Source: Thermoplasmatota archaeon
GTDB lineage: Archaea; Thermoplasmatota; Penumbrarchaeia; Penumbrarchaeales; Penumbrarchaeaceae
Length of the DNA: 64,000 nt
Reading direction: 5' to 3'
Assembly (NCBI GenBank): GCA_016928095.1
Contig: JAFGLL010000061.1
Span: 1,181 to 65,180, forward strand
The notes below the pieces were generated by a model, which did no database searches, was not told where the DNA came from, and saw only the letters and a list, made by a program, of their open reading frames with translations. Position numbers and translations under genes: made by a program. Below, piece after piece: positions 1-18,723 of the stretch; positions within the stretch are counted from its first letter, which is position 1; each line of letters starts with the position of its first letter.

Positions 1-3000
1 ACTCACCCATCTACCGCTGTTATTTCCAATATCATTATAATCGATCCTCAGGTCTTCATCCGTATCATTCGCATTGGTCCTGAAAACGATGTAGGTCTGA
101 TTGAAATCCTTATGGTCCCATTCTGAAGGATCGACAAGGTCATAGAACATTGCATTATGACTAAAACTGTCATCTTTATTATCATCCGGGGTATATATCG
201 TTAAATTTCCATATGTCCAAGCCTTCGGACCATGACCAGGACCATTTCCTTCACCATCATTGGAATCCTGGTCCCAGACATTGATGTAGCCATCACCGTC
301 AGTGTCAGTAAACGGATCGGGTTCAACTGAATCCAACAATCCATCATTATCACAATCAGCAATTGTCGGATCTGATTCGAGATAATGTTTAACTTTGTAT
401 CCTTCCGTGAAATATGGATAATTTACCCATTCTGAACCGGTGGGTTTGGAATTGTCATTCCAGTTATCACCAGGTCCTGGAACATAGATCGCCCACGCAT
501 AATCCAATTCAAAGTTCTGATTTCTGTTTTCCTCACCGTCTGTGAATCCATCATTATCCGAATCTATTTCCCTTAGGTCGAATTTGTTATCACCGTCAGA
601 GTCGTAGAACGGATCTCCTTTGACATTCCAATAATAACAGTATTCGATACCGTCAATTATACCATCCTCATCCGTGTCTGCTCTCAGAGGATCGGAGAGT
701 TGGGTGTAATCAACACCAACTTTCTTGTATTCACCAAATTCAATCTGATTGGTATATTGTGGGTAGCTATTCCAACCATCTTCTGAATCGGCGATGTTGA
801 ACTCGCATTCTCCTGTTTCGATTATATCCACTGCGGAGGTATGTTCGGTATCCCACCCATCACACCACCCATCTGGTAGGCCGTCATTGTCGGTGTCCCG
901 GTCACAGGGATTCGTTTCGTCGTAGTCTCTCATCCCATAATTATGCCAGTTCTCCATTTTGTCAGGAAGACCGTCGTTATCGGTATCCACATCCAAGGGA
1001 TTTGTGAACTTGTACTCGTCTTTGTCAGAGAGACCATCGTCGTCAGAATCTGGATCGTTCGGATCGGATGAAAGATATTTACTCCCGATTAGATTCTGAG
1101 CAAAAAAAGTCTTGATCTTTCTGTTATTGTAATCATTTGATGTCAGATTGTATGCAGGAACAAAGTCCTCGACCTTCAAGGTCCAAATGAGTATTTCCTC
1201 GTAGTCAGTAAGTCCATCTCCATCCGAATCAGCACCCATCTGATTGGTCATCTGGAGCAGTATCCCGGTCTTGAACGCCTTGCTCTGGGCAATTCTCCGT
1301 TGATCCCCGGCTGAAAACGGCATTCCATCATCGTACTCATCATCCAGCCAGGAATCACTGCAATAATACAGTTCACCATAATGAGCTGGTAATCCGGTTC
1401 TGACCGAGGCATTGCTGTAAACATCGAACCCATCCCATAATGAGTCTCCATCGGTATCGGCCTTTGTTGGATCAGGTTCGTCTCGATCGTGTTTCCCGTT
1501 CATATTGGAATCCTCACCTTCCCATGGATCGAAATAACCATTTACCTCGTCAACAAAGGAGTATCCATTGTAATCTCCATCATTAACGAAAGTATTAGAA
1601 TAATCGACGAATTCTTTATCGATCGGGTCCCAGATCATACCGTCCATCCAACCATCCGGAAGACCGTCACCATCACTGTCGGGATCGATCATGTTCTCAT
1701 AACCGTCATCATCAGTATCGAAGTTCCAGCTGACCTCGTCACCGTCTAGCAAACCGTCGTTATCGGAATCGGGATCGATCATATTCTCTATACCATCATC
1801 GTCACCAGAGTTAAGGCTCCAGTTAATCTCCTGTCTATCGAGAACCTTATCGTTATCTGAATCCGTGTCTCTCAGATTAGCAACATAGTCAGAATCGCTG
1901 TCGCTGAACATCTGGACCTCTTGACCGTCAACTATGCCGTCGATATCGGAATCTATTTCGAACGGATTGCAGAAATATACCTCGCGGTTCCTGTCAATCG
2001 GTAAATGATTCATGTTCTGTTCGGTTCCAGATCGATTGTAGATCGCGACCTTTCCAGGTAGAATTTTGTATCCCGATTCAGAGTCTTGTGAATCAGGAAT
2101 GACATTCTTTTTGTCCCAAATATACAACTGCGAACTTGACTCGTCCATGAATACGCCGCTCTCGTCCTTCAATCGGAAAAGTAATGTTATATTATCCCAA
2201 CCACAGGGACTGTCGGCAGGTGGATTTGTAACCATCCTGGAGTATGTGAAGTTCATGGTGATAGCCGCTCCAAATCCGTCCCAGTCGTAGTTCAGCCATG
2301 CTGACGAATTATCATATCCTTCGAACCTGAGCGAACCTCCGTCAAAGCTGCTACGGTAAATGACTCCACCTTTGGTATGATATGCACTGGAACCACCCGC
2401 ATATATCTCTTCACCGTCATCTAGGTAGTCGTTGTAAACATCATCCTCAATTATCATCCGGTCAGTGTTATTCTTTTTAGGATGGGTCCCGATAATATAT
2501 TCGTCTCTGTTGCTCAGATCGTCTCCATATTGGTATGAATCAAATTTGTTGCTTAGTAAGATGAACGCGGGTTGAGTGCCAGCGGGAACGCTTTCCCAGG
2601 GGGCATATTCTCCGTTTTTCATCATGTAATCAAGTGGCGAGTTGTCATCATCATTGTTGATCAGGTTCAACATTTGCATCGACTCGTCTCCGCTTATCAC
2701 AATGAAATACTGCATCCCGGATTCCGGCATCACAAGCCCGTTGATATCAAAAATGAACCATCCTTCAAAATCTGCTGGCAGGTCGATATCCATAGATTGA
2801 AGGGAATTATGTGGTTGATCCTTACCCTCCATCAGATAGATATCTCCTGACCAAGAGTCATCTGTTTGCACGTAGAACCTGCCCTCGAAGAAATCAAAGC
2901 GCTCGTCCTCTGTGAAGTTCATCAGTCTGATCGCAAGCTCGTTCTGGTCGATCAACGGGAACTTATCATCTTCCCAGTTCTCTTTGTAATACGGCACATT

Positions 3001-6000
3001 CATCTTTATCGATTCCTTGTCAAGGTCCACGATACGATACCCGAACTTGGCACAGAATTTATTACTGGACGTGTTTTTTATCTGCCAGGCATCGAAAAAT
3101 TGAAAATTCGGATAGAAAGCCCAGAAATTATGGAACATCTCCCTTACCATTTCATCGGGTGCGGTTCCCAATTTGACACTTTCCCAGAGAGCGTCATAAC
3201 TTTCTTCGGGTATATTCTCGTCCTGGAACACCAGGTCAGTGAAAATAAGGACCTGGCCCGGGTCTTCCATTGTGTGTTTGGTATGCCATACCAGACCAGG
3301 ACCTTCATTCGGATGCATGAACTCGTTACGTAACACGATGAAATAAACGGGGTATACATCCGTGGTCATGCTAATACTTGGTAGGTAATCGAAATTACCA
3401 GCCAGAGGTATCTTGATCCACCCGTCATCCGAAACGGTCGGAGGCATCTTGAGCTGGAACACCGGTCGCTCAGGATAAACCGTTTTCGGATTGGTATTGA
3501 GCCAGTCCGGGTCGGTTCCTTCCCAGATCTCTACAATGGTCTCGCTGTAGAAATCGGCTTTGACCTCGATATAGTCCGCATCGAACAGGTCTCCTGCCTT
3601 AACATCAAGTCGTTGTGCGAAACCGTGAATACGGTTTAAAGAGGATCCTTCACACATACTTGACCAGAATTGCCAGTCATAGGTTCCCCGATCGTCGTAT
3701 TCGTTATCGTAATCGATTGTCTCCGGGTTTGTCTCACCTTCCATCAACCCGGCTTCCCATAACACATCCACACCGTCGATGTCCTTGTCATCATCGTCAA
3801 CTGTCGGGTCCAAACCTTCGACCGTTCCATCCCGATAAATAAAATACGGCCAGATATGCGAATACCAGACCTCATACCCGTCGTCAATGGAATCTCCGTC
3901 GGTGTCCAGGGAGGACGCATTGGTCTCGCCTACGCCAGCAACCTCGAAGGTGTACGGATCGAACGACCATACAGCATCAAATGGTTCGGTTTTACCGTCA
4001 AGGTTAAGGTCCTCGCCTTCATAGATCTGTTTCACGTTATCAGGGTCCATCTTCCGGTCCCATTTCCAGGGCTGGTATTCCCAGTAGTCAAGGTTAGCAT
4101 ACCTGTCCCAGAAAGAATCGTAAGATTTTCTATACAACCGTGGGAAAACCTCATCACCGTAATACCAGCCATCGATCCACCCATCAGGTAACCCATCATT
4201 ATCGGTGTCGGGGTCCATAGGATCGGTAAGGGTTGCGCCGTTGTCAGCGTCAAAGTTGTTGATCAGCGAGAAATTGAACGGTGACCGGTCGGACGAATGC
4301 GCGATACGTTCGAAAAAAGAACCGGTGCTGTTCACGTCTCCGTTGATGTATTCGATGAACTGCCCGGATAATCCGAGCTCGACACCGTCTCGAATACCGT
4401 CACCGTCGGAGTCGCGGTCGCCGAAGTCCGTCCCGAAATAGTCCTCCCATTTATCAGATATCCCGTCATGATCAGGGTCGGATGATAGTGCATACCTGGT
4501 CTCGTTGAACGCTTCGTCACCATCATCGATATCGTCCATGTCGGAATCCCTGTTCATCGGGTCAAGGCCCTGGTAATCAACCCGGATATAATCAAGGTAC
4601 TGCAAGGTTATCCTGTCCGGGTCGATGACACCTTCGGGAGTTTCACTGGTCTGGTCAGCAAGGTCAAGAGATAATTCCAGGTAATACATCATACCTCCCT
4701 GTAGCAAATACTCGCCCTGGGAAGTTATCTCGCCGATCACCGCCTTGATCGGTTCCTCATTCGGATCGTTTGATGTGTTGACCACCTTGATGATATTCAC
4801 GTTTTCGGTATAGGTGGACTCGGACGAATATTCGATGGGTGAGACCTCGTTATACGAGTAATAAACCCTCATCTGGAACGATTCCGATAAAATGTCCTGG
4901 AGATACTCGGCCTCTGAACTGTTGAGGTCGAGGTCGGTGACGTTAAGCGACCCCTGCGGAAGTAATTCCGTACGGGGTAGGTTCCCCGGGATCATGGTTC
5001 CCACAAGTTTATCCTGTCGGGATTCAGCCGGGTAGTTCAGGCTGAACCTGTATGTACCGGTTTTATCCGGGACGAACTGGAGTTTGATACTGGAATCTAA
5101 AATTGTGTCGTTGTAATTGGAACTTATCAGAGACACCGACCGCTGCTGGAAGAAACCGTAACCCGCAGTGGTCTTCAGAAGCTCGTTATCCTCGGACAGG
5201 AACTCGGTCATGTAGGTCGGGTTCCAGGGTTTGTATAGCTGAGCATCCTCGCATTCCAGGATGGACACGCCTCCGAACGTGACGATTTCTTCCCCATCGT
5301 TTACATTGTCATAGTCCGTGTCGGGGTCCAGCGGGTCCATGATGAACTCAAGGTTGATCTCGAGATGGTCAAGCGTGACATTGAGCGGGTTCTTGGTATG
5401 GATCTCCATCTCGTAGGTCTGGTCTGTCGTTTTCCCGTACAGGTATTCCAGAATGTCCGGTCCGAAATCGGATGATAGCTCGTCCAACGGGATTACTTTA
5501 CTGGATTCCAGTATCCCCGACCCGGAAGAAGATGCTTCGATCTCAATATACTGCGAGTATACTGATACAATATTTTGGTTGGATGTCGTATCGTTCAGCC
5601 AGCAGAAAGTGTTCTTATGTATCGCAGGAACACTTGGTGAACAGCTTTCCATCAGGATCTTGTTGAAGTTTACATTGATATCATATACACCAAGTGAACC
5701 CTCGGAGGTTGAGTAAACTATGTTCTCGTTGTAAACATCGAACCCGGCTACTGAGATGGGTACGAATTTTAGCTGGTTGTGTGAAAGATCGTAAATACCG
5801 ATCGCCGGTCTTGATTCGGTTCCTGAGCTTACCTGGAACCCGGCATATGCAGCAAACAGCAGGTTCGACCCGGAAATGCGCGGGTTCCAGCATTCCGTGT
5901 AGTCACCGGAGATCAGCGAGGTGGAGTTGACCTTTAGACATGCTTCGGTTGGCATTCCAGCATAAGGCTTGACCGAAGTGACACCTGCTATCCAGACCGA

Positions 6001-9000
6001 GGTTGCACCGGCATGGGTGTCGAGGAACACTATCCTATCATCTTCGATCCTCGGGTAGGTCTGGTCCCAGTCCTCGTCAATGAAGTTCGAACTGGTATTC
6101 AATTCTACATGGAAAATTCCGTTATAAGATATATCCTCGTCAATGTCACCATCGTCGTCATCGTCCAGATAATTGAATGGATCTTCATTGGTATAGCTAT
6201 CATCGTCATCGTCTGTCAGGTAACCGGGTTCGTAGAAATTAGGTATGCCATCATTGTCCAGGTCAATATCAAAAAGGTAAATATCGAAATCCGATCCGTT
6301 CCTGGCCTGGAACACGATCCTGTCTTCGTATATGTAAGGGTTCAGCTGTTCCTCAAGGGTAGAGTTCAGCTGCCTGAACTGCTGTCCGGTCAGGTTCAGT
6401 TCCACCAGATAGATGACCGATTCTGCTCCGTCCCAGCATTCAAACACTACATGGTTGCCGCAAATACTGGGATGGCGGAAATCCTTACCCTCGGAATTGT
6501 ATGTGTCGGTGGTATCCAATACCATGTCATAGACCTTGAGAACGTAATTCGAGCCGACAAGTTCGGTCCAGGCTATCTTATTCCCGTAAACGACCGACGG
6601 ATCACGATACTGATTATTGCTGGTGAACTCGTCAACCGGATCGATGTTCTCAAGGTCGGTCCGGAGCCGGAAGAATGCAGATGTGGCAAAAGATGTGCCT
6701 GGTAGGTATGATGTATGGATCGGGAATGTGTACCCGTATTCTTCGTCCTGCGAGAAATCCGTCTCCGTGATCTCCAGTATCGACGTATCCCCGGTATCAT
6801 CCCCGAACAAGGTCTGTTTTACCTGGGACATGTTGCAGACCATCGCCTTGTCCGCAAACAACCCGACACCCGCCTTCCTTGATGAGACAAGGTAATGAGT
6901 ACCTGATTCTTCGGGTTCGAAAGTGATGTAGTTCCACCTGAACTTATTATCCAGTGAGAAATTCTTCACTGCGATTGAACTCTGGCTACTGTCGAGAACC
7001 TCAAGCTTGAGGTTCTCTTCCTTGATCATCACATCATTCATCCAGACATGGGTCACCCCTTCACCCGGCGAGGTAAGGTTCTTGTTCCCGGCAGAGATAC
7101 CGAAAAAAATCCTGAAAGATGAATAGCTGCGAATATCAGCGGAACCGAGCTGAGAGTATGACCCGAGATAGTTCTTGCGATAGAACCCGATCTCTTTCCC
7201 GTCGGAGATCAGCATGATCTGGTTGCCGGCAAAGTCAAGATCATTATACTGAGCATTTGACCGGTTGGTCTCGGTGAATCCGATGGAGAAGGTCGCTCGC
7301 AACGAATCGTCATCACCGTCCACTACCCCAAATATCATCCTGCTTTCCCTGCCCAGTTTCGTCTCGGACCTCACGGTGTAGTTGAACAAACAGGTGAAAT
7401 TTGTCTGGAACTCACGAAGTGAGTAGTACACATCGTTGCTGATGTCCGTATCCATGCAGGCGACATTTACGCTGTAGTGTGCGTTCCCGGACCCGGAATC
7501 GTCGATAGTGATCGCGCCATCGGATTCACCAGACCCGACATGCTCCCAATTATCCATAAAATCATAGACATCATCGAATGTATCATAGACCTCCCACTCG
7601 GAGTCCTGATCTGCCCTACTACGGAAATAATACCGGTATTCGGTCCCATTGTCAAGCTGGACAGGGATGCTGATCAAGTTAGTTGATAAAGATTCGTTGT
7701 AGATCACATGACCACTGGACGCGTTGATGAACGGACTGATATCTCCGTCACCATAGTATTCGGCTTCGAACCATAATGTTCCCGACCGCTGCTCAACACC
7801 ATCGATGATGAGGTCCTTATCGGAATCCATCATAACGGGGTTGGTGATCAACCCGTCAAGCTCGTCATCGCTCCTGATTATTACGAACGAGTCCAGTAAC
7901 ACCGCATCGGTGGAATCTATCGAGATCTTCAGCATATCAGTGTCCGGGTCGATGGAGAATATCTCGGTTGTGTAATACCTGAATCTACTTGATAAAATAA
8001 ATGACTGGTTGATCGTCAGCGGGTCTGCGGTGTACCCGTCAACTTCCCACACAGATATTTTCACGGTCTGGTTGAACACCTGGTTCTGTGGACCCAGTCT
8101 GAACATGAATCTTATACTGTCATCCGATCCGGGCGGAACCGGTAAGTATTTATTGATGAGCGATCCGCTGGAAGTAGGTTTAAGAGCCTTCTCACCGCAG
8201 GCGTCCCAGGACGGTTCGATCTGGTCTGTTGTCAGGCCAAAGTCCTCGCCCTCATACCAGCAAACATTTTCGTTATTCTCCTGCGAGTCCAGGATATAAT
8301 CGTCATCGGAATCCAACGAATAGGAATTGATCCAGAGCGTCCGGCTCAGGCCGGGGGTGAACGATGCGTTGTTCAGTATACCGTGGTTGCACTGGTCGTC
8401 AAACTCGTTGGTCAACCTGAACTCCGGGTTGCCATAAGATGTTCCGTGGTATGAGTTCCCGCTAAGGTCGCGGATGGTATAGGTTCCTGAGGTCCAGTTG
8501 CTGTCCTCAAACGAGATGAATAAGTCAGGATCAGATGGTGGCTCGCCGATCATGAATAAATTGATCTCGTCAAATGTCAAAGCCCTTCCAAAGTATCCTA
8601 CGTCGTCGATCTTGCCCTTGAAATAATATTCGTTCCTGTTCCCATCGAACGTTGTGGCTTCCGACCCGTCGCCTATGAAACCGAATCTTGTAGCTGTGGT
8701 GCCAAGGCCCAGCCCATTATGTGGATTCTCGGCAATGGCTTCAAGGTCGCCGTCCAGGTATAGGTATTTGTCGGTGCCGTCGTAGACCGCGCACATGAAA
8801 TGCCAGTCCCCATCATTCACTGCGGTAGTCCCGATCAAGTCGTCAATTCCATTATCAGATTTCGTGGAAAAACCCATGTTCCCATTATCGCCCCGAACGT
8901 AAATGTTGAAATACTCACTCCGGTCAAAGTCGAGAAACGCCCAGTTCAGGTTCTGGCCCATACCGGATTCCGTTGTCTTGAACCAACAGAAAGCCGACAT

Positions 9001-12000
9001 CTGGGTGATGCAGTTTTTCTCGCTGAACGACATGTTAAGAGCGATGTAATCGTCACCGTCAAAGTCCATGCATGTTTCATACGACCGGATATTGAACGGA
9101 CCATGGAATATTATCCCGTTTGAGGTCCAGGTGTTCTCCTTGATTAGTATATCCGAAAGTACACCGTCCGAACCGGTGAATCCGTTGAACACCCGGACAC
9201 CGGTCCTGTTCACGATGTCAAAGTCCATGAACGGTGTGACATCGTGCTGGAATCCGGGGTCCATGAACGGGTGTATCTCCGGGTAGGTCTCAATCTGGAC
9301 ACGGCCATACACGTCCAAAAATGACCCGGGATCGGATATCGTGACCTTGTTATCATCGGTCAGGGTATCTATCATCCGACCCTGGCACCCGCCATCAAGA
9401 TCGAGTTGATTGGACATGTCCTCATCGAACGAGCATCCGCTCATCGAAATTTGTCCGTTTGAAGACCGGACGGCTGTGTCGTTGATGTTACTGAATGATA
9501 TGCCCCACTTGGTCAGTCTGGATGTCGAGAACGAGTTACCCTGGAACGATGCCTTGAACTTCAGTTCCGAATAACCGTTGTAAGGTGTCAGGTCAAACGG
9601 TAATGTGTCCACCTTGGTGATTGTATCATTGGACCCGTCCAACAAGTATAGATTCAACCGGTAAAGGTCGTCAGGGTCTTGGTAGGTCACGAACAGCTCG
9701 TCCCATTGGTTATTTGTCGGTCTGGTTATCACATCCGAGACGAGGAACCCGTCGGTGTAGTAAACAGGTACATAATTGGAATTGGTCACGGTGATACCTT
9801 CGACATACACTTCCGGGTCGAACCCTAACCCGATGGATTCTTCGGTAGGGTCTTCAAGCACGGTGATTCTGATAGTGAGGTTATCAATCTCTGTCCAGCC
9901 GGTATTGTTCTCCCTGAACACCTGACCAAATAATTCCAGTAGAGGATCATCAAGGCTCTTGTCGACATATGACGTATTGGTGACATGATACCAGGTCCAA
10001 TGATACCCGGTTTTGATAGATTTCTCCCAGGATTCACCGGTGTAATTCCAGTCATTTTCTTCTGGATGATCGCCCAATAACGTATAGTCAAACGAGCTGA
10101 ACACCATTTTCCGTGACTTGAAGTTCTGGTCGTCACGGCTTATATTGAACGAAATGGACGCTATCGAACCTTCAGTGAAGTTCTCCGGGTTGGCCATCAG
10201 CAGGAACCTGGTCTGTAGAACGTAGTCCATGGCCTGGTCGGACTCATCGAAGTCTATCGTGTATTCAAGGGTTTCATACGAAGCCTCGGACTCGGTCCCT
10301 TCACACGTTACCTTGAGATCCGACCCGGATCCGGACCAGGTATTGTTGGATTTGCTGACCGTCCCGGTCCCCGTCGCGTTCCATTTTTCCTGGTCGATGA
10401 CCGACCAGTTCTCGGAAAAGATCGTGTCTGACCCGGATTCCTTTAACTTGATCGCACTACCGTCCAGAATTAGGTTCTCGTTCAACTCATCGATAGACGC
10501 GACCGAATAGTCGATAGTATATTCCGTCCTAGACTGAGAGAATGAGACGTTGTACAACGAAACATTCCCGTTAAAATTGTTTATCACAGTATTGTCCATT
10601 GAATATACCTGGGACGAATACATCAATAAATTCCCGCCATGGACCTCCATTCCGATATTACAATTTTCGGTAAGGTCCGAGGTCTCATTGTTTATCCTGA
10701 CCCCGATCAGGATCAGAGTGCTGCTAGACGAATAAATAATGTAATCATTCAAGTAGAATGAATCACCGCGCATGGATTGCTGGCTACCATCGGCGAACAA
10801 ACCGATATAGTTACCATAGAAAATATTATCGCTGACACGGGCAGTGGATGGTCCGGGTGACCGGACAACGCCGGATCCACCTGAACATATCGCTGTGGGT
10901 TCACCTAACAGGAACTCGGTGAACCCGTCACCGTTGATGTCGCCCGCGCTTACTGCCTCACCGAACCCGACACCGCTCCCGCTCCCTGTGAACGTGTACA
11001 ATGCTGAACTAACCGAGATAGGATCGGTGTTAACTGCCGAACCTAGCATGATATACGCCTCGATCGAATCCGGGTCAGTAATGATCAGATCCTGGACAAA
11101 GTCGCCATTGATATCGAACCCGCCAACGCATTGATAGCCAAGTGTTGTTGTGCTTTCCGAGGTAAACTGTGTAAAATATTCCGAATAGGTCAGATTATTG
11201 GATTCGAAAAGGGCCTGCCCCGAATATACAGATAAAGTGGAATTCCCAGCAAACACCGCGATATCGTCGAACCTATCACCGTTGATGTCACCCACATTGA
11301 ACACGTTTGTTCCGAAATCACCCGACCCGAATATGATATCCTCGTAACAGTCCGACGATTTTGAACCGGATAACCGGGAACCCGAATACAGGTAAACGGA
11401 TGACGAATAATCGCACCCCACCGCGAGCTCGGTCATGCCGTCGCCAGTGTAATCACCCACCTGAGTCAAATTGGCTCCAAACCCGGTCTCGGCAGACGTT
11501 AAAACACAGTCGGCGGTCTCGTCCATGGACCCGCCTCCAAAATAGATGTAGACCTTGTTCTCGCCCGGAGACCCGACCGCAACATCCGAATACCCGTCGC
11601 CGTTAAAGTCGCCCCCGCTCGTGAAACTTGATCCGAATGTGGAATCGGCCTCGGATATCTGGATGGACCCCAGGGTGGCCTTGAACTGGTACCATAACCG
11701 GATACTGTCAAACGATGGGGTGAACGCGCCGTTGTAATAATCAGCCTCTGAGATATTTATCCGGATCCGGAAGAACTTGGTGTAATACGAATTGAACTGG
11801 ATAGGTGTGCCACTTGACATGGGTTCGTAATACCAGGTGTCACCGTCAACCGACCAGCCAAGGTCGAACGAGACAGATCTGCCGTTCTGCGAATATATGA
11901 TCTGCGGGACCACCTGATCTGCCCAGTCAGGGAGCTCTGCCACAGAGCTCAGGTATGACCCCTCATCGTGGTACCCGGACCCCGTGACGTTCACCGAGTA

Positions 12001-15000
12001 GATTGTCGGCGTGACATCGAACAGGTCGCTCTCCAGGAAGATCTTCACCTGGATATATTTCGTCACAATGTTGGTTGGGGTGAAATCAACCAGATCAACA
12101 AAATAAAACGACCCGGGACCGGTAGGACCGGTCCAGGACCCGTTCTCTATCTGGGAGGTTGTGTTACCGGTTCTTATCTGGTATTTCACATTGGTTTTTT
12201 CCGGGATGGTTACCGGGATATCGACCGATATCAGCCGGACCGGTGATTCGAACGATAATATCGACGAAGTCACATCTGATCGGTACCGGACCATGCTGAA
12301 CAAATTGATCCGGCTCATTATAAACTCGTCAACCGCACCTGCGAAGTAGTTACCGTCGTCGTTTCTACCGATATATAACTTGCCGGTGTTGTCAAAAGAT
12401 AGATAAGGTACTTCAACGAAACCGTAGACACGGCCGTTGACAAACGACCGAAGTACACCGTCTCCGAACGTGAACCCGACCTGGGTCCACCGACCCACAC
12501 AATCGTTCATATCAACGTCCTCGATAGGGGTGGATGTGGAATACCAGATGGACCCGGCACGGGCATACACGATCAAGCAATAATCGTTGTAATTTTTCTC
12601 TATACTGAGATTGAACGAGTTGTCCTTTTCAAGTATCACGTACCGGTCGTCTGTTAGCTCCTGAGGCATCTTCACGAACAGACTTAGGGTCATACCATAC
12701 TCATCGTAATCGAAATTGGTGTCATTGACAAAGAGATAATCGTCAACACCGTCAAGGGAAACAGCCGACCCGATATGACCGGTGACCCAATCGGATCCGT
12801 AGCCGGACCCGTCAAATAGGACGGCTTTCTGAGAACTGTCGTGATGGTTCTTGGAGTTGAGCCCAGTTCCCTCATCAAACCTGATCGATGTGATCTGATC
12901 TGTATCAAATGACCAGGTCGAATTGAAATGATCACGTTTGACGTAGCTTATCCGGGCGTCATCAATCTTCCCGAGGAAATATTCGCCTACCTTGATCACG
13001 GCCCCGTCTTCCAGGATCGGACCGGTACTGGACACGGATTTCTGGGCGTCCAACCTGCCATTGATGAACGTTTTGATTATTCCGTTGGTATTGTCATAGG
13101 TCAACCCCACATGGTACCATGTATTGAACTGGTCATCGAAATTTAAACAACTGTATGATGTATCTGTCCATTGCTCGGACCCGTCCTGTTTGACCATGCC
13201 ACGGAGATAAATGTCGCCATAACCGTCCTCAAACAGAGATAACCCGTATGACCCTGGACGGGTGATGATGTAGTTATGACCTGCATGGCCGGTTCCTGTC
13301 GGGTAGATCCATGCATCAAGGCTGATATCAGTATCGATGGTGTAATCGAACCCGGCAGTGGTAAATGACACATACGACGAATCCGAACCGTTGAATGACA
13401 GGCATCTACCGAACCTGCCATCTGACCAGGCTGCGTCGTAGATGTCACCGTTATTGGACAGGATATTGTCAACGGTCATCGTACCAGATCCTTCGTTCAT
13501 ATTACATAGAAAAATTGTATCTTCGTCTGACAATGATTCGGATTCGGATCGGAAATATATCAATGTCGGGAAATCCGACCGGGGGATGTTGGACAATCTG
13601 ACCTCATCGAATCGACCTTTAAATTTGTTCATGTAATCATACGACTCATATTCGGCGCCAATGATCAGTCTGCTTTCATAATCACCGGACCAGTCATCAG
13701 AGTCATCAGTATCGAACTGGAGCACCCCGTCAATATACATCTTAATACCGTCGCCCCAGGTAACTGCAACATGATACCACTTGTTCGAGTCCCAGGAAGT
13801 CCGATCGGACCAGACAGTATGAGGGCTGTCATGGTCTATGATGAATGTCAAATGACCATTATCCTCATCAAAAAATAATGACATGTAATCGTTTGAAGGT
13901 CCCTTAATATCCATCAGATAAACTGGATCCTCTGACAATGCAGAGAATGGTTCTTGAAGATTGAAATACATCTCGAAGGTTCCAGTGGTCAGATTGAACC
14001 TATTACCACAATCAATATAACTACCCATACCACACGACTCAAGGCATCCATCGAAGTACCCTTTTGTATCCCATTCAAATGAATCAGGAGTGAGTGTGAA
14101 ATCGTAGCAGTCGTAATAGAATTCATTATAGACATCCATGCCTGAGGTCTCATCCAGATGAAGAAGTAATTCAGTATATATATCAGCAGAATAGGAATGC
14201 AATCCTCCTTCCCTGGGATCTAAAGGGGTTGTTTCAATGGCCTCTGTGTAAAAATACAGTTCATCGATCCAACCATGAAAGTTCGAAAAGGTGGTATATG
14301 GTAGTGCATCATTATAAGAATCTTCGGGAGGATTGCATCCCTCAGGATCGGTCAACGGTCGCTGCCCAAGAACATAAAACTCAGAATCGGTATCAAGCTC
14401 AAATTTATTCTCGACGGTTTCGTTCATCTTCTCGATATCTCGGACCTCTCCATCAAGTTCAAGGAATGCATAATGGTCCTTAAAATATACTCGGACATGA
14501 TGTGTCTCATCCTTATCTATTATATCACCTGCAGATAGTAACCGCGAGGTTGTTAAGGAACCGTTGAACATGCATGTATAACCCTGGGGAAGGTCCTCAT
14601 AATGATAAACATCAGTGAACCGGATATCGTCGACATAGAACAATCCATCATAAGGCGGTAGGTCCTTGTCAGCGATCAGGATGATCCTATCGAAACCGAA
14701 ATCTGTAGTGCTAACGATAGAAGCCCAATCCGAATAGATGTTTTCCATGAACATATCGAATTGCATATTTTGCGTCATTGTCCCATCATCTACCCAGTTA
14801 CCTACAGCCATCTCTTCTTGTGCGAAAGGTGTGGTGCCTCCAAGATAATAAATCAGCTCATTCCGTGAAGGACCAGTCCCGTTTGCAATACCAATTGCGG
14901 CTATTTCACCGATATTATCGCATCTGATGAAAAAATTGAATTGGGCAGTAGTATCCAGGTAATATTGTCCGATCTCCCATTCCATCCATGAATCACCATC

Positions 15001-16839
15001 ACATTGAAACGAGCTTAAAGGTGACAAGAAAACATTACTCTGAGATCCTTCCATTTCATCGTTGTTATCCGCTCCAGGTACTATTCCTTCATAAAAATGA
15101 AGATCTTCATTCTGGTCAATGTATAGCTCTAGTCGATTATCTTGTACTTTGGTCGGGACCAAATTTGGGATGTAATCGTATTCCAGATCAACGGTATATG
15201 TTTCTACATGGACTTGATTATTCTGAAGAACGATCCCCATTTCAGGAACTGTAAGGTTGGTATCATACAATCCCATCAACATTTTCCGATGATTTGTCTC
15301 AAGGTCACTCCTTTCGTCTTCGCAATAACCAGGATTCCTGAACCAAAAGTCAATCGTTCCATCACCATTTAGATATGGGGATTCTAATGGTTCGGAAGTG
15401 ATCCCGAGTTTTAAGTAATCATCCACCCCGTCAAAATAAATCGCTTTATCTGAATGACCGGTCTTGTACGTTGGTGTAGTACTATCATTTCCGTCATAAT
15501 ATATTGATGACCATTCTCTTGATGTTTTTTCAAATCCCAAATATTCATTTTTACTTGAATCAAATGGAAAATAACTAGTGCAATAATCCGATGCTGGATC
15601 GAATGTAAGAATAGAATAATCTTTAGGGAAACTAATCGATACACCGTCCGTCCAGAAATCTAAATCGGTTGAGTCTACCCGATCAGATGACTTGTTCAAT
15701 TCCCACATTACCGATGAAGTGGTATCTATCAAGACCAGTTGACCAGATCCTTTTTCTCCTCCCTGTTGGGCTGCCATTCCAAATAAGTTCCCTGATTGGA
15801 AATCTGTAATTGTTTCATTTGATATTTTACCTCCAAACCCGGAAATGTTTGTGAAATAAACATATACGGAATTATTTCCCGGTGCTGAAATGACCAAGTC
15901 ATTTAGCCCGTCGCCGTTCATATCGCCGTTGAAATCGATCTTGCTTCCGAACATGTCCCCGGAGTCTTTCCCGTATAATTTTATATCCGCATCGAACGGG
16001 GTCAGCTCGGACAAACAAATATCCGGACTGCCATAGAAAAGGTAAACCGCACCAGCATCCGACGCAACAGTATCGTCATACGGAGCCGATATCACCACAT
16101 CCGTGAAGGTATCATTGTTGAAGTCCCACATGCAACTGACATAGGTTCCGAAACCATTGTCCCCTTCGTTATCGTAGATCATCGCCCCTTCGCTTGTGGA
16201 GTTGAAGAAATAGATACCGAACTGGTTGTTGTAGATCTCGTTATTTGTGATGATCGGGTTCGAACAGACGAAAATACCGAATATCTCGTTGTCATGGATC
16301 TTACTACTAGATATACTGACGTTGTCACCGAGTACAACGATACCTCCCTCGGAGGGGGAGCCGCCGACAAAGGAGATGTCGGAGTTCTGAATGGAGGCGT
16401 TGCCCTCGATCTTGAGATCATAAAAATATCCACCAGACCTGTTGATAACCGATACCGTGGTCCCGTCAAGGTATAACTCACCGCATATTCCGGTTGTTTC
16501 GTTCTTCTGGACATGCAGGATGAAGTTACCCTCGACCGGATGATGGAAAAGTAACTCACAGTTGATAAGAGAGAGATTCCCACCTGGTTGGATCACCACA
16601 TTACCGTAGATCTTCAGTACTTCATTCTCTCTGACGACCGTATCACCCGGTTCGATGTACCAGTCATTGTAGGTGTAGCCATCATAAGGTTCGCCCACCT
16701 CGGACCAGAGTTTGTCCACGATAGGGCTGAAATTCACGATGTACATCATAACAACTAAGGAAATGGCGATCACCTTCGTTGCTCTCGATATTTTTTTCTG
16801 GATGTTTTCAGAAATATGGATCTTCTCTTGCCATCTCAT
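1..16839 (-). CDS. Giant secreted/membrane-anchored surface protein (adhesin-like), 5' end at ATG 16839, 3' end beyond the left edge (>=5,613 codons in window)
   Basis: Hand translation of the minus frame: ATG at 16839-16837 is preceded by an in-frame TAA at 16863-16861 and a G-rich stretch (GGGGGGAAG) 7 nt upstream. N-terminus MRWQEKIHISENIQKKISRATKVIAISLVVMMYIVNF is a signal anchor. Downstream are right-handed beta-helix repeats (IHDNEIFGIFVCSNPIITNNEIYNNQFGIYFFNS) and FG-GAP-like repeats (DFNNDTFTDVVISAPYDD..GAVYLFYGS; DFNGDMNGDGLNDLVISAPGNNSVYVYF). Spot translations at ~12000, ~8000, 241-420 and 1-60 stay open in the same frame. Near the left edge the sequence is calcium-binding repeats (ADCDNDGLLDSVEPDPFTDTDGDGYINVWDQDSNDGEGNG). 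Every ORF the track lists in 1-16839 is short and in another frame. The track skipped this ORF because it has no stop inside the window. Confidence 0.8.
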   Translation of the reverse strand, partial: MRWQEKIHISENIQKKISRATKVIAISLVVMMYIVNFSPIVDKLWSEVGEPYDGYTYNDWYIEPGDTVVRENEVLKIYGNVVIQPGGNLSLINCELLFHHPVEGNFILHVQKNETTGICGELYLDGTTVSVINRSGGYFYDLKIEGNASIQNSDISFVGGSPSEGGIVVLGDNVSISSSKIHDNEIFGIFVCSNPIITNNEIYNNQFGIYFFNSTSEGAMIYDNEGDNGFGTYVSCMWDFNNDTFTDVVISAPYDDTVASDAGAVYLFYGSPDICLSELTPFDADIKLYGKDSGDMFGSKIDFNGDMNGDGLNDLVISAPGNNSVYVYFTNISGFGGKISNETITDFQSGNLFGMAAQQGGEKGSGQLVLIDTTSSVMWELNKSSDRVDSTDLDFWTDGVSISFPKDYSILTFDPASDYCTSYFPFDSSKNEYLGFEKTSREWSSIYYDGNDSTTPTYKTGHSDKAIYFDGVDDYLKLGITSEPLESPYLNGDGTIDFWFRNPGYCEDERSDLETNHRKMLMGLYDTNLTVPEMGIVLQNNQVHVETYTVDLEYDYIPNLVPTKVQDNRLELYIDQNEDLHFYEGIVPGADNNDEMEGSQSNVFLSPLSSFQCDGDSWMEWEIGQYYLDTTAQFNFFIRCDNIGEIAAIGIANGTGPSRNELIYYLGGTTPFAQEEMAVGNWVDDGTMTQNMQFDMFMENIYSDWASIVSTTDFGFDRIILIADKDLPPYDGLFYVDDIRFTDVYHYEDLPQGYTCMFNGSLTTSRLLSAGDIIDKDETHHVRVYFKDHYAFLELDGEVRDIEKMNETVENKFELDTDSEFYVLGQRPLTDPEGCNPPEDSYNDALPYTTFSNFHGWIDELYFYTEAIETTPLDPREGGLHSYSADIYTELLLHLDETSGMDVYNEFYYDCYDFTLTPDSFEWDTKGYFDGCLESCGMGSYIDCGNRFNLTTGTFEMYFNLQEPFSALSEDPVYLMDIKGPSNDYMSLFFDEDNGHLTFIIDHDSPHTVWSDRTSWDSNKWYHVAVTWGDGIKMYIDGVLQFDTDDSDDWSGDYESRLIIGAEYESYDYMNKFKGRFDEVRLSNIPRSDFPTLIYFRSESESLSDEDTIFLCNMNEGSGTMTVDNILSNNGDIYDAAWSDGRFGRCLSFNGSDSSYVSFTTAGFDYTIDTDISLDAWIYPTGTGHAGHNYIITRPGSYGLSLFEDGYGDIYLRGMVKQDGSEQWTDTSYSCLNFDDQFNTWYHVGLTYDNTNGIIKTFINGRLDAQKSVSSTGPILEDGAVIKVGEYFLGKIDDARISYVKRDHFNSTWSFDTDQITSIRFDEGTGLNSKNHHDSSQKAVLFDGSGYGSDWVTGHIGSAVSLDGVDDYLFVNDTNFDYDEYGMTLSLFVKMPQELTDDRYVILEKDNSFNLSIEKNYNDYCLIVYARAGSIWYSTSTPIEDVDMNDCVGRWTQVGFTFGDGVLRSFVNGRVYGFVEVPYLSFDNTGKLYIGRNDDGNYFAGAVDEFIMSRINLFSMVRYRSDVTSSILSFESPVRLISVDIPVTIPEKTNVKYQIRTGNTTSQIENGSWTGPTGPGSFYFVDLVDFTPTNIVTKYIQVKIFLESDLFDVTPTIYSVNVTGSGYHDEGSYLSSVAELPDWADQVVPQIIYSQNGRSVSFDLGWSVDGDTWYYEPMSSGTPIQFNSYYTKFFRIRINISEADYYNGAFTPSFDSIRLWYQFKATLGSIQISEADSTFGSSFTSGGDFNGDGYSDVAVGSPGENKVYIYFGGGSMDETADCVLTSAETGFGANLTQVGDYTGDGMTELAVGCDYSSSVYLYSGSRLSGSKSSDCYEDIIFGSGDFGTNVFNVGDINGDRFDDIAVFAGNSTLSVYSGQALFESNNLTYSEYFTQFTSESTTTLGYQCVGGFDINGDFVQDLIITDPDSIEAYIMLGSAVNTDPISVSSALYTFTGSGSGVGFGEAVSAGDINGDGFTEFLLGEPTAICSGGSGVVRSPGPSTARVSDNIFYGNYIGLFADGSQQSMRGDSFYLNDYIIYSSSSTLILIGVRINNETSDLTENCNIGMEVHGGNLLMYSSQVYSMDNTVINNFNGNVSLYNVSFSQSRTEYTIDYSVASIDELNENLILDGSAIKLKESGSDTIFSENWSVIDQEKWNATGTGTVSKSNNTWSGSGSDLKVTCEGTESEASYETLEYTIDFDESDQAMDYVLQTRFLLMANPENFTEGSIASISFNISRDDQNFKSRKMVFSSFDYTLLGDHPEENDWNYTGESWEKSIKTGYHWTWYHVTNTSYVDKSLDDPLLELFGQVFRENNTGWTEIDNLTIRITVLEDPTEESIGLGFDPEVYVEGITVTNSNYVPVYYTDGFLVSDVITRPTNNQWDELFVTYQDPDDLYRLNLYLLDGSNDTITKVDTLPFDLTPYNGYSELKFKASFQGNSFSTSRLTKWGISFSNINDTAVRSSNGQISMSGCSFDEDMSNQLDLDGGCQGRMIDTLTDDNKVTISDPGSFLDVYGRVQIETYPEIHPFMDPGFQHDVTPFMDFDIVNRTGVRVFNGFTGSDGVLSDILIKENTWTSNGIIFHGPFNIRSYETCMDFDGDDYIALNMSFSEKNCITQMSAFCWFKTTESGMGQNLNWAFLDFDRSEYFNIYVRGDNGNMGFSTKSDNGIDDLIGTTAVNDGDWHFMCAVYDGTDKYLYLDGDLEAIAENPHNGLGLGTTATRFGFIGDGSEATTFDGNRNEYYFKGKIDDVGYFGRALTFDEINLFMIGEPPSDPDLFISFEDSNWTSGTYTIRDLSGNSYHGTSYGNPEFRLTNEFDDQCNHGILNNASFTPGLSRTLWINSYSLDSDDDYILDSQENNENVCWYEGEDFGLTTDQIEPSWDACGEKALKPTSSGSLINKYLPVPPGSDDSIRFMFRLGPQNQVFNQTVKISVWEVDGYTADPLTINQSFILSSRFRYYTTEIFSIDPDTDMLKISIDSTDAVLLDSFVIIRSDDELDGLITNPVMMDSDKDLIIDGVEQRSGTLWFEAEYYGDGDISPFINASSGHVIYNESLSTNLISIPVQLDNGTEYRYYFRSRADQDSEWEVYDTFDDVYDFMDNWEHVGSGESDGAITIDDSGSGNAHYSVNVACMDTDISNDVYYSLREFQTNFTCLFNYTVRSETKLGRESRMIFGVVDGDDDSLRATFSIGFTETNRSNAQYNDLDFAGNQIMLISDGKEIGFYRKNYLGSYSQLGSADIRSYSSFRIFFGISAGNKNLTSPGEGVTHVWMNDVMIKEENLKLEVLDSSQSSIAVKNFSLDNKFRWNYITFEPEESGTHYLVSSRKAGVGLFADKAMVCNMSQVKQTLFGDDTGDTSILEITETDFSQDEEYGYTFPIHTSYLPGTSFATSAFFRLRTDLENIDPVDEFTSNNQYRDPSVVYGNKIAWTELVGSNYVLKVYDMVLDTTDTYNSEGKDFRHPSICGNHVVFECWDGAESVIYLVELNLTGQQFRQLNSTLEEQLNPYIYEDRIVFQARNGSDFDIYLFDIDLDNDGIPNFYEPGYLTDDDDDSYTNEDPFNYLDDDDDGDIDEDISYNGIFHVELNTSSNFIDEDWDQTYPRIEDDRIVFLDTHAGATSVWIAGVTSVKPYAGMPTEACLKVNSTSLISGDYTECWNPRISGSNLLFAAYAGFQVSSGTESRPAIGIYDLSHNQLKFVPISVAGFDVYNENIVYSTSEGSLGVYDINVNFNKILMESCSPSVPAIHKNTFCWLNDTTSNQNIVSVYSQYIEIEASSSGSGILESSKVIPLDELSSDFGPDILEYLYGKTTDQTYEMEIHTKNPLNVTLDHLEINLEFIMDPLDPDTDYDNVNDGEEIVTFGGVSILECEDAQLYKPWNPTYMTEFLSEDNELLKTTAGYGFFQQRSVSLISSNYNDTILDSSIKLQFVPDKTGTYRFSLNYPAESRQDKLVGTMIPGNLPRTELLPQGSLNVTDLDLNSSEAEYLQDILSESFQMRVYYSYNEVSPIEYSSESTYTENVNIIKVVNTSNDPNEEPIKAVIGEITSQGEYLLQGGMMYYLELSLDLADQTSETPEGVIDPDRITLQYLDYIRVDYQGLDPMNRDSDMDDIDDGDEAFNETRYALSSDPDHDGISDKWEDYFGTDFGDRDSDGDGIRDGVELGLSGQFIEYINGDVNSTGSFFERIAHSSDRSPFNFSLINNFDADNGATLTDPMDPDTDNDGLPDGWIDGWYYGDEVFPRLYRKSYDSFWDRYANLDYWEYQPWKWDRKMDPDNVKQIYEGEDLNLDGKTEPFDAVWSFDPYTFEVAGVGETNASSLDTDGDSIDDGYEVWYSHIWPYFIYRDGTVEGLDPTVDDDDKDIDGVDVLWEAGLMEGETNPETIDYDNEYDDRGTYDWQFWSSMCEGSSLNRIHGFAQRLDVKAGDLFDADYIEVKADFYSETIVEIWEGTDPDWLNTNPKTVYPERPVFQLKMPPTVSDDGWIKIPLAGNFDYLPSISMTTDVYPVYFIVLRNEFMHPNEGPGLVWHTKHTMEDPGQVLIFTDLVFQDENIPEESYDALWESVKLGTAPDEMVREMFHNFWAFYPNFQFFDAWQIKNTSSNKFCAKFGYRIVDLDKESIKMNVPYYKENWEDDKFPLIDQNELAIRLMNFTEDERFDFFEGRFYVQTDDSWSGDIYLMEGKDQPHNSLQSMDIDLPADFEGWFIFDINGLVMPESGMQYFIVISGDESMQMLNLINNDDDNSPLDYMMKNGEYAPWESVPAGTQPAFILLSNKFDSYQYGDDLSNRDEYIIGTHPKKNNTDRMIIEDDVYNDYLDDGEEIYAGGSSAYHTKGGVIYRSSFDGGSLRFEGYDNSSAWLNYDWDGFGAAITMNFTYSRMVTNPPADSPCGWDNITLLFRLKDESGVFMDESSSQLYIWDKKNVIPDSQDSESGYKILPGKVAIYNRSGTEQNMNHLPIDRNREVYFCNPFEIDSDIDGIVDGQEVQMFSDSDSDYVANLRDTDSDNDKVLDRQEINWSLNSGDDDGIENMIDPDSDNDGLLDGDEVSWNFDTDDDGYENMIDPDSDGDGLPDGWMDGMIWDPIDKEFVDYSNTFVNDGDYNGYSFVDEVNGYFDPWEGEDSNMNGKHDRDEPDPTKADTDGDSLWDGFDVYSNASVRTGLPAHYGELYYCSDSWLDDEYDDGMPFSAGDQRRIAQSKAFKTGILLQMTNQMGADSDGDGLTDYEEILIWTLKVEDFVPAYNLTSNDYNNRKIKTFFAQNLIGSKYLSSDPNDPDSDDDGLSDKDEYKFTNPLDVDTDNDGLPDKMENWHNYGMRDYDETNPCDRDTDNDGLPDGWCDGWDTEHTSAVDIIETGECEFNIADSEDGWNSYPQYTNQIEFGEYKKVGVDYTQLSDPLRADTDEDGIIDGIEYCYYWNVKGDPFYDSDGDNKFDLREIDSDNDGFTDGEENRNQNFELDYAWAIYVPGPGDNWNDNSKPTGSEWVNYPYFTEGYKVKHYLESDPTIADCDNDGLLDSVEPDPFTDTDGDGYINVWDQDSNDGEGNGPGHGPKAWTYGNLTIYTPDDNKDDSFSHNAMFYDLVDPSEWDHKDFNQTYIVFRTNANDTDEDLRIDYNDIGNNSGRWVS

Positions 16840-17224
16840 AACACTTCCCCCCAGATTTCTTTATCCATTCAAACCATTGAATGATGGGGTATTTAAATGA
16901 AAATAAAAATGGACCTCCCGCAAGGGGGGTCTATATAATACTTTCGCTTTCATTTTTATCACCGGAAAAAAAGACGTGTTCCAAGGGTATGACATATGGC
17001 CGAAAGGGGGGAGAAAGTGACCGGGAGGCCATGAGGATGACCATAATACAGGAGACTCCAACGAAATTTAGGTCCCATGATATATCGATAAACAGAAAGG
17101 GTATCCCCTTTGTAAGTCCATACCCCCATCAGAGCGAAAAGTGGACTTCAATGATCATGATCCTGACGAGATGGATGGAATCTTTTTATTACCAATATCA
17201 GTATGTCATATATTGGGTCCAATA

Positions 17225-18274
17225 ATGAAACTTGACATGTCAAAGATGATTCCTGTTGTACTGATAGTAATTCTATCGGTCCCTCTATTTTACTACATAT
17301 TATTCTATCCCGATAAAAGAAACAATGATACTGAAAACAGATTGGATATGGTCATAGGTTTCTATATCTCAGGTGAGGATTTTCTTCAACAACTCATCGA
17401 CGAGGATATATCAGACACATTAGGATTGTCATCCGATAGGATCGAATTCTATTACCTTGTCGACTATTCCGGGTTCGGAAATACTGAGTTCTTTCATGCC
17501 AGGAATTATACTAAGATCCCATTGAATATCTCACAAATTCTTCCATATGACTCTTCAGAACTGGATATGGGCTCGGATGAGGTATTTGCAGGTTTTGTCG
17601 ATTATATATCTGATATCGAGGCAAAAGATCATTGCTTGATCATATGGGGACATGGACGGGGGTATGAAGGAGTATGTTTTGATGGCAGTTCCATGCTCAC
17701 AGGAAAAGAGATCGGATCGAGTCTTACCGGAAAAGGAATAGACCTTCTCATCTTTGATGCCTGTGAAATGATCTGTGCTGAATTCCTCTACGAATTGAGA
17801 GATCCGGTTAGATACATACTCGGATCGGAAAAGGATATCCCGGATCGCGGATTGGATTATTCAGGGGGGTTCACAAGGTTTTTTGGATCCAATTCGAGAG
17901 ATATCAAGAACCTTGCCATCGACATCATGGATGAAACTTTTTCGTATTATTCCAGGAACCCGTCCAGGTTCTCCTTACAACTATCGTTGATCGATATGTC
18001 GGACTTCATGGCATTTTCTCGGGACTTCACATCATCCTTTCTGACCGAGAACTCCATCTATCCGGATCGTTTCGAATCCGGGAAGAGGTTCGACCTTGGG
18101 CTTCTTCTCGAAATGAACAATGAAACATGCCTCCTGAGGACGTTGGAGGATTCGATAGAATACCTGATGATCCTTCCATCCACTTCAGGGGTACCGGTCA
18201 AAGGCCTGTACGGTATATCCGTCCTGTCGCCTGAGTTCACAGAAGATGGGATCGACAATCCGTTCCTTCTCTGA
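17225..18274 (+). CDS. Membrane-anchored clan CD cysteine peptidase (C11 clostripain-like)
   Basis: Track ORF 17141..18274 begins at a GTG. The more likely start is ATG 17225 (MKLDMSKM), followed by a TM helix (IPVVLIVILSVPLFYYILF). Catalytic His-Gly and Cys motifs typical of C11/clan CD: LIIWGHGRGYEG and LLIFDACEM. A TATA-like CATATATT sits ~20 nt upstream. Transcribed divergently from the giant surface protein. Confidence 0.55.
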   Translation: MKLDMSKMIPVVLIVILSVPLFYYILFYPDKRNNDTENRLDMVIGFYISGEDFLQQLIDEDISDTLGLSSDRIEFYYLVDYSGFGNTEFFHARNYTKIPLNISQILPYDSSELDMGSDEVFAGFVDYISDIEAKDHCLIIWGHGRGYEGVCFDGSSMLTGKEIGSSLTGKGIDLLIFDACEMICAEFLYELRDPVRYILGSEKDIPDRGLDYSGGFTRFFGSNSRDIKNLAIDIMDETFSYYSRNPSRFSLQLSLIDMSDFMAFSRDFTSSFLTENSIYPDRFESGKRFDLGLLLEMNNETCLLRTLEDSIEYLMILPSTSGVPVKGLYGISVLSPEFTEDGIDNPFLL

Positions 18275-18650: not shown

Positions 18651-18723
18651 TAGCCCCGGGCGGATTCGAACCGCCGTCTCCGGCTCCAAAGGCCGGAATG
18701 ATTGACCACTACACTACGGGGCT
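18651..18723 (-). tRNA. tRNA-Gln (anticodon TTG)
   Basis: Minus-strand sequence AGCCCCGTAGTGTAGTGGTCAATCATTCCGGCCTTTGGAGCCGGAGACGGCGGTTCGAATCCGCCCGGGGCTA. Acceptor AGCCCCG/CGGGGCT, anticodon stem CCGGC/GCCGG with loop CTTTGGA (anticodon UUG), T arm GGCGG-TTCGAAT-CCGCC. No encoded CCA. Confidence 0.85.

Follow-up and report, generated by a model that had tools for sequence, protein, structure and literature searches.

A C11 cysteine peptidase with a membrane helix, encoded head-to-head with a giant surface protein in a Thermoplasmatota archaeon

In Clostridioides difficile, the surface-located cysteine protease Cwp84 (family C1A) makes an obligatory maturation cut on SlpA, and Arg-gingipain (clan CD, family C25) matures the fimbrilins FimA and Mfa1 by removing an N-terminal, lipid-anchored prosequence. 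LapG is a calcium-dependent, transglutaminase-like cysteine protease (family C93) that is unrelated to clan CD. Acting outside the cytoplasm of Gram-negative bacteria, it cleaves LapA, a giant repeat-rich adhesin, within the N-terminal region by which LapA is retained, so that the presence of the adhesin at the surface is controlled, and is itself under the control of LapD, a receptor for cyclic diguanosine monophosphate (c-di-GMP) (PMC3032545). Caspase-fold peptidases coupled to giant toxins or surface proteins release or mature them (PMC3482391), and giant Omnitrophota proteins carry peptidase domains in cis (bioRxiv 10.1101/2023.11.21.568195). Within family C11, fragipain of Bacteroides fragilis activates the protoxins BFT and Fab1 by limited cleavage (PMC8406203). 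Here, we analyze a 64,000-nt stretch of DNA from a Thermoplasmatota archaeon (contig JAFGLL010000061.1; the whole stretch is called the window below), in which the gene for a C11 cysteine peptidase with an N-terminal membrane helix diverges from the gene for a giant surface protein (the giant). The head-to-head arrangement is conserved in most of the related Thermoplasmatota, and it suggests that the protease probably cuts or matures the giant.

Uncultured archaea commonly carry giant surface proteins, and how these mature, are anchored, and are shed is essentially obscure. We know of no archaeon in which a counterpart of LapG, of Cwp84, or of maturation of the gingipain type has been characterized, and our search of the literature on C11 proteases, archaea, and giant surface proteins returned neither such a counterpart nor a description of an archaeal C11–giant pair. 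The pair amounts to a small system, with a 349-residue enzyme on one side and one conserved juxtamembrane motif on its neighbor on the other.

A C11 peptidase paired with a giant surface protein

The peptidase was matched by Pfam family PF03415 (Peptidase_C11) over residues 47 to 267 (E = 4.9e-28; 99.1 bits against a cut-off of 25.8 bits), and the Pfam scan reported no second family, even at E ≤ 10. Neither profile nor fold placed the protein in C13 or C25, and no LapG-family (transglutaminase-like, C93) domain was detected, leaving Peptidase_C11 as its sole family. It scored 16 bits against the NCBIfam clostripain equivalog, far under the cut-off of 550 bits, and is thus not clostripain itself. 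The best sequence matches in the Protein Data Bank were C11 enzymes of Bacteroides and Parabacteroides; in 6n9j and 6mzo, WSHG and FDAC aligned with the WGHG and FDAC of the window protein. An AlphaFold2 model computed from an alignment of 15 homologs had a predicted local distance difference test score (pLDDT) of 85 and a predicted template modeling score of 0.83. Its best Foldseek matches, over the whole chain, were thetapain (6n9j), PdC11 (6mzo), clostripain (9cip), and iotapain (6nag), with E-values of 1e-16 to 3e-19 and template modeling scores of 0.65 to 0.73.

His143, Asp178, and Cys180 are invariant in the 15 relatives (45–62% identity), as are the tripeptides G142-H143-G144 and D178-A179-C180; 35 columns besides the three residues are likewise invariant, 38 in total. 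In PmC11, Asp177 is the proposed primary S1 residue for the preference for Arg or Lys, and it overlays Asp229 of clostripain (PMC4850288). The equivalent residue in the window protein is Asp178, two residues before the catalytic cysteine, and because of this aspartate in the S1 pocket the enzyme most likely cleaves after Arg or Lys. Arg145 and Lys161 lie in the loop after the catalytic histidine. Across the 15 sequences, residues 146 to 165 include no conserved Lys or Arg position, and some relatives have neither residue there, so an activation cut of the PmC11 or clostripain type cannot be read from this loop. These features are best explained if the gene encodes a catalytically competent C11 cysteine endopeptidase.

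The only strongly hydrophobic segment of the protein spans residues 9 to 27 (mean Kyte–Doolittle hydropathy, 2.58). AlphaFold2 placed a helix at residues 5 to 26, followed by a low-confidence linker at residues 28 to 37. All 12 homologs with a complete N-terminus carry a net charge of 0 to +2 in the flank preceding the helix and of −1 to −7 in the 15 residues past it. These charges fit the positive-inside rule with the N-terminus in the cytoplasm and the protease domain outside, and we infer a catalytic domain that would face the cell exterior on a single N-terminal tether. A sequence-only reading made before this analysis had recognized a C11-like clan CD peptidase with His-Gly and Cys catalytic motifs (WGHGRGYEG and FDACEM) behind an N-terminal transmembrane anchor; the profile search, the alignment of both motifs with those of solved C11 proteases, and the hydropathy of the anchor segment all agree with it.

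That reading had also described an open reading frame (ORF) of 377 residues; the longest ORF at the locus, 17141..18274(+), has this length and a GTG start. The frame stands, and a later start is supported: no homolog matches the 28 residues preceding ATG 17225, and homolog N-termini begin with MK(F/V)D directly ahead of the hydrophobic helix. ATG 17225 was taken as the start, giving 349 residues, in view of where the membrane helix lies and of how the 15 relatives align. The NCBI call for a protein of 100% identity, JXA22_05610 from a Candidatus Thermoplasmatota metagenome-assembled genome (MAG), is 345 residues long; the name of that genome agrees with the guess of Thermoplasmatota in the sequence-only reading.

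The divergent gene for a giant surface protein, also part of the sequence-only reading, is real. On the minus strand, the ORF runs from 16839 to 1, free of stops over 5,613 codons, and continues beyond the window start; the giant was read without its C-terminus, which lies past window position 1. A Lys/Arg-rich (basic, cytoplasmic) tail is followed by a membrane helix and then by a region rich in β-strands, which looks β-helix-like from sequence; Pfam Beta_helix had no match in this N-terminal region. Further along, Pfam identified Laminin_G_3 (E = 3e-57, four stretches), FG-GAP repeats (E = 5e-32, five stretches), and Laminin_G_2. The C-terminal third of the part encoded in the window consists of Asp-rich, TSP3-like repeats with a weak TSP3_bac match, and Asp makes up 11.6% of the residues of the giant. 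The most conserved feature of the giant is its juxtamembrane segment, in which 10 orthologous N-termini share the motif (D/N/E)-K43-x-x-S-E-V-G after the helix; K43, S46, E47, V48, and G49 are invariant, and Lys43 stands two residues past the helix. By inspection, no A-x-A-type small-residue signal-peptidase motif follows the helix. A single-sequence structure model of the N-terminus was uninformative (pLDDT 44.6).

Two proteins (P0016 and P0018; P and L numbers are working labels) are 51 to 56% identical to the C-terminal third of the giant. They add more than 400 residues of Asp-rich repeats past the window end and stop short of the C-terminus. Their MAGs are labeled "Thermotoga sp." and "Candidatus Thorarchaeota" at NCBI, and both contigs are probably mis-binned and of Thermoplasmatota origin. 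Searches with the last 1,000 residues encoded in the window and with 403 residues of P0018 that reach past it listed proteins of up to ~1.75 times the query length, and neither the full-length giant nor its long orthologs were among them. P0298 was considered as a C-terminal piece of the giant and rejected; its gene follows one for ferredoxin on a contig of 1.6 kb.

The C11 subfamily is rare and sharply bounded. A word-indexed search recovered the 15 relatives, all with PF03415. In a profile search of 1.84 billion cluster representatives (50% identity), five scored above 400 bits, the next was P0136 at 196 bits, likewise with a membrane anchor, and general C11 proteins followed with scores no higher than 150 bits, for a total of 11,201. 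A scan of GTDB genomes with the C11 profile gave four loci, three of them already known. Pairing was assessed on contigs with readable upstream DNA, which was searched with the sequence of the giant; this covered 12 lineages, and those of P0003, P0013, and P0014 were excluded from the count because their upstream sequence is too short. The C11 gene stands head-to-head with a colinear giant ortholog in 9 of the 12 (the window's own and those of P0002, P0005, P0006, P0008, P0009, P0011, P0012, and P0015). Overall identity of the orthologs is 47 to 50%, across as many as 3,189 residues, and it is 51 to 78% in their first ~300 to 600 visible residues. Nearly all run off the contig end, as expected of genes so rich in repeats. 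The opposite flank was compared as an internal control: no gene was common to the downstream side of the window C11 gene, 45.7 kb in length, and the downstream flanks of eight other loci (tblastx, E < 1e-8). The C11 proteins and the giant N-termini show correlated pairwise identities (Pearson r = 0.86; 21 pairs, not independent of one another), which fits inheritance of the two genes as a unit. Co-occurrence of the peptidase with giant proteins, which the sequence-only reading had put forward as a check, is seen in nine lineages and fails in three, in which the giant is deleted at its N-terminus, reduced to a stub, or absent.

The first exception is the P0004 lineage (L010, L011, and L018, from three assemblies), in which the divergent gene begins at about giant residue 4757 and has no anchor (for example, L010 3–3536 (−)); apparently, an N-terminal deletion of ~4,750 codons has left the C11 gene intact. 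At L014, the locus of P0010, an 89-residue ORF (186–455 (−)) matches the giant N-terminus and then meets a stop, beside an intact C11 gene; this remnant could be the stub of a pseudogene or the product of a broken assembly. The pair is intact in P0008, a relative of P0010. In the P0007 lineage (L019 and L023), the 570 nt upstream of the C11 gene have 20 to 36% GC and hold no giant; by eye, this DNA looks as if it encodes a helix-turn-helix regulator in place of the giant. The C11 gene of this lineage has an in-frame TAA between the anchor and the catalytic domain, on contigs from two samples, and L022, 89% identical to the P0007 lineage, has lost its N-terminal third and reads DHW for GHG. Decay of the C11 gene where the giant is gone is a prediction of functional dependence, and the pattern, seen on short metagenomic contigs, is suggestive.

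The C11 gene is disrupted in other ways in two further cases. The C11 protein of P0014 (L004, L005, L006, and L015) is truncated to 256 residues; relative to L014, which is 86% identical, ~180 nt lie between its catalytic part and what remains of the C-terminal domain. At L003/L016, on the 353-kb contig CAWEDU010000017.1, a frameshift splits the C11 gene (9688–10801) into calls of 114 and 266 residues, and the giant ortholog (1–9573) is called as 3,183 residues plus an overlapping ORF of 881 residues. The disruptions on this contig may be indel errors of sequencing or assembly instead of real breaks.

Proposed role of the peptidase and competing explanations

Because both proteins are anchored N-terminally in the membrane, the enzyme would be placed next to the K43-x-x-SEVG motif of the giant. 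We propose that the C11 enzyme, tethered to the cytoplasmic membrane by one helix with its catalytic domain outside and inherited together with the divergent giant gene, acts in trans on the giant. With a linker of ~10 residues between it and the membrane, the protease would be well placed to cut beside the anchor, and a cut at Lys43 would turn the anchored precursor into a mature giant that is released or attached in another way. Invariant Lys43 is the leading candidate for a cut beside the anchor, and a speculative one that is more likely wrong than right; fragmentation through cuts at other basic residues, or liberation of a C-terminal module, would fit equally well.

On balance, a dedicated, trans-acting, Arg/Lys-specific processing protease appears to be the likelier identity of the C11 protein, with the giant as its presumed substrate. 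This assignment draws on gene context. The sequence-only reading had proposed a dedicated processing or anchoring protease; processing gains support from the pairing in nine lineages, and anchoring by transpeptidation finds none. A bolder version, in which the pair forms an archaeal switch for adhesin release or maturation, working by removal of the anchor at Lys43 or by release of a C-terminal effector or, in a radical variant, through a re-attaching transpeptidase, is speculative and rather doubtful. If the dedicated role is true, the C11 genes of sediment Thermoplasmatota would have to be read in a new way: metabolic reconstructions mostly enter them as nutritional exoproteases, and this subfamily seems bound to one partner. 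Short of biochemistry, the practical gain is modest.

Several observations weigh against a dedicated protease. The C11 gene is apparently intact beside the deleted giant of the P0004 lineage and beside the 89-residue stub of L014, and some of the exceptions may be assembly artifacts on short contigs. The paired loci all come from a single narrow clade (45–62% identity), so their conservation could partly reflect inheritance and not selection. One scan of Joint Genome Institute metagenome contigs with a profile of the giant N-terminus, made to find giants that lack a C11 neighbor, gave no confirmed locus. The spacer between the genes shows no conservation, and a separate promoter seems to drive each of them. 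Low Lys + Arg content as an adaptation of the giant to the protease was considered and rejected: at 5.8%, the giant is similar to the other secreted proteins of the window (6.4–7.9%), and its composition holds no signal of adaptation. Finally, C11, C25, and C13 peptidases of MBG-D (Marine Benthic Group D)/Thermoprofundales have been read as nutritional exoproteases (PMC6461988).

The last point is the core of the alternative that survives best, that the enzyme is a general extracellular or nutritional protease, which would break down proteins from the environment so that the peptides can be taken up, and whose adjacency to the giant is historical or reflects loose co-regulation of surface functions. 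Such a role would suit an enzyme that is predicted to face outside and whose specificity is probably broad (any Arg or Lys), and the wider C11 family, with its 11,201 relatives, shows no link to giant genes; L017, a distant C11, has no adjoining giant. It is nevertheless an unlikely account of this locus: the protein is tethered to the membrane and not released, such extreme rarity of the subfamily is unexpected for a general scavenging enzyme, the pair was kept in 9 of 12 lineages while the opposite flank was wholly reshuffled, and the C11 gene has decayed where the giant is missing.

A surface-remodeling protease with several substrates, which would serve shedding and turnover or act on proteins captured by the lectin-like and integrin-like domains of the giant, with the giant as scaffold or partner, is improbable to a further degree. 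On present data, it is indistinguishable from a dedicated protease. Arg/Lys specificity is not inherently selective, the giant has multiple LamG and FG-GAP binding modules, and the window encodes three other large proteins that are probably secreted and low in Lys + Arg: an 862-residue PKD/cadherin-like protein (23121–25709 (+)), an 812-residue right-handed β-helix protein (34972–37410 (−)), and a 1,014-residue protein with a signal-like N-terminus (40206–43250 (+)). Against this, the conserved linkage singles out the giant, and no other surface-protein gene of the window is conserved beside the pair.

A sortase-like transpeptidase that recognizes a C-terminal signal of the giant and transfers the protein to a lipid or envelope acceptor, as PorU and glycosylphosphatidylinositol transamidase do, is very improbable: nothing positive speaks for it in a giant read without its C-terminus, the enzyme shares its predicted fold with hydrolytic C11 proteases, and the giant is already anchored at its N-terminus. 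That the gene is an inactive or decaying pseudo-protease, as the damaged relatives (truncated P0014, the in-frame stop of the P0007 lineage, and the GHG-to-DHW change of L022) might suggest, hardly deserves credence for a full-length window copy with intact dyad, S1 aspartate, membrane helix, and C-terminal domain, a confident predicted fold, and 38 columns invariant over 15 sequences at 45 to 62% identity.

Locus features, spacer, and genomic surroundings

Features of the C11–giant locus (window coordinates)
Feature	Position	Strand	Basis
Giant surface-protein gene, 5′ part (at least 5,613 codons)	1..16839	−	Continuous ORF, Pfam
Giant membrane helix (~residues 22–41; 16717–16776) and Lys43 codon (16711–16713)	16711..16776	−	Alignment
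Divergent spacer, 385 bp	16840..17224		Sequence
C11 (clostripain-family) cysteine peptidase gene, 349 residues plus stop	17225..18274	+	Start by homologs
N-terminal membrane helix/signal anchor, residues 9–27, IPVVLIVILSVPLFYYILF	17249..17305	+	Hydropathy, AlphaFold2
WGHGRGYEG motif with catalytic His143 (codon 17651–17653)	17645..17671	+	Alignment to solved C11 enzymes
FDACEM motif with S1-pocket Asp178 (codon 17756–17758) and catalytic Cys180 (codon 17762–17764)	17753..17770	+	Alignment

The sequence-only reading had proposed a shared divergent promoter region of ~385 bp; the length of the spacer is as stated, and the sharing is doubtful, since the two genes seem to have separate promoters. 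On the giant side, a consensus archaeal TATA box (TTTAAATA, a perfect match) lies at 16890–16897 (−), 50 nt upstream of the ATG, and a Shine–Dalgarno-like run of six G residues at 16847–16852 (−), 7 nt upstream. No TATA box with up to one mismatch was found within the 280 nt upstream of ATG 17225, and the best promoter candidate on the C11 side, by eye, is a T-rich stretch ~35 nt upstream of that ATG. Spacers at the other loci are 110 to 271 bp long and AT-rich. The G-run before the giant ATG is common to several loci; no conserved regulatory element shared across the spacers was found, their lengths and sequences being different. Just beyond the TATA box of the giant, the window spacer holds a strong predicted hairpin at ~16909–16934 (+), ATGGACCTCCC-GCAA-GGGGGGTCTAT, with an 11-bp stem that includes G-U pairs (ΔG −19.5 kcal/mol, RNA fold), and then a T-rich stretch. 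The spacer matched no Rfam family, and a repeat search reported no DNA inverted repeat in it.

Genes downstream of the C11 gene in the window include tRNA-Gln, class I lysyl-tRNA synthetase, and a phosphoribosyltransferase. The tRNA-Gln(TTG) gene (18650–18723 (−)) lies 376 nt downstream of the C11 stop, before the synthetase gene. GC content at third codon positions is 0.49 for the C11 gene and 0.46 to 0.53 for the giant gene (5′ and 3′ parts within the window), against 0.60 to 0.72 for the other genes of the window; a shared foreign origin, low expression, or amino-acid bias could account for these low values, and one possibility is that the tRNA-Gln gene beside this compositionally deviant pair marks an integration site. 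Genes of mobile-element type, which encode a phage-type integrase, DDE transposase, or GIY-YIG nuclease, lie just downstream of the pair at L001 (10986–11888), L007 (9001–9987), and L010 (5276–5590). Their presence hints that the pair sits in variable or mobile regions.

Other neighbors recur at some loci. Mutually homologous presenilin-family (PF01080) genes lie 3 to 8 kb downstream of the pair at L001 (12691–13977) and L003 (18422–19516). In principle, a presenilin-type enzyme could clear a leftover membrane stub; as a third component it was rejected, as the window has no homolog. Beside the C11 gene, L003 (11254–13380) and L024 (1610–3732) encode a tetratricopeptide-repeat protein (~455 residues) and a 233-residue protein with an N-terminal membrane helix and no Pfam match. 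The flank of L021 has homologous sequence in common with L003 and L024, and both genes are absent from the window.

Comparison with known systems

Among characterized members of MEROPS family C11, clostripain, PmC11, thetapain, iotapain, and PdC11 share only 14 to 23% identity with the window protein. These enzymes are secreted or lipoprotein-anchored, whereas the window enzyme is archaeal and has an N-terminal membrane helix. The autoprocessing loop of PmC11 contains Lys147 and that of clostripain Arg181 and Arg190; the window subfamily has no conserved basic residue there. Unlike the named C11 enzymes, the window protein is genetically tied to one giant neighbor. Fragipain resembles the proposed enzyme in being a C11 protease that makes a limited, activating cut on particular secreted proteins (PMC8406203). 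It acts on small toxins, whereas the substrate presumed here exceeds 5,600 residues, is membrane-anchored, and is encoded next door. The fab1/rfab1 cluster was likely acquired independently of fpn, which leaves the protease untied to that substrate gene (PMC8406203).

Cwp84 and Arg-gingipain belong to other families (C1A and C25), act in bacterial hosts, and have substrates of ordinary size. In MARTX toxins, in the cysteine protease domains of TcdA and TcdB, and in the releasing peptidases of polymorphic toxins, the protease is a domain in cis, whereas here it is the product of a separate gene and anchored in the membrane. C11 domains do occur fused within proteins of 1,500 to 3,700 residues elsewhere (P0139, P0208, and P0138): P0208 (3,691 residues) combines two C11 domains with 12 FG-GAP_3 repeats, CARDB, and Ig domains, and P0139 (3,519 residues) has three C11 stretches and CARDB. 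Such fusions hint weakly, as domain fusions of the Rosetta-stone type, at an association of this kind.

In function, LapG–LapA (and DvhG–DvhA) comes closest to the proposed mechanism, as an analogy and not as membership. A LapD-type regulator belongs to the LapG system and none is evident at the window locus; the flank comparison, too, gave no conserved third gene shared with the window. LapA is secreted by a type 1 system and held in a TolC-like outer-membrane pore (bioRxiv 10.1101/198937), whereas the giant described here has a membrane helix. Linkage of the protease gene to the giant gene across lineages, a feature of the LapG type, was found here in 9 of 12 lineages. The C11–giant pair is a variation on a known theme, not a new kind of system.

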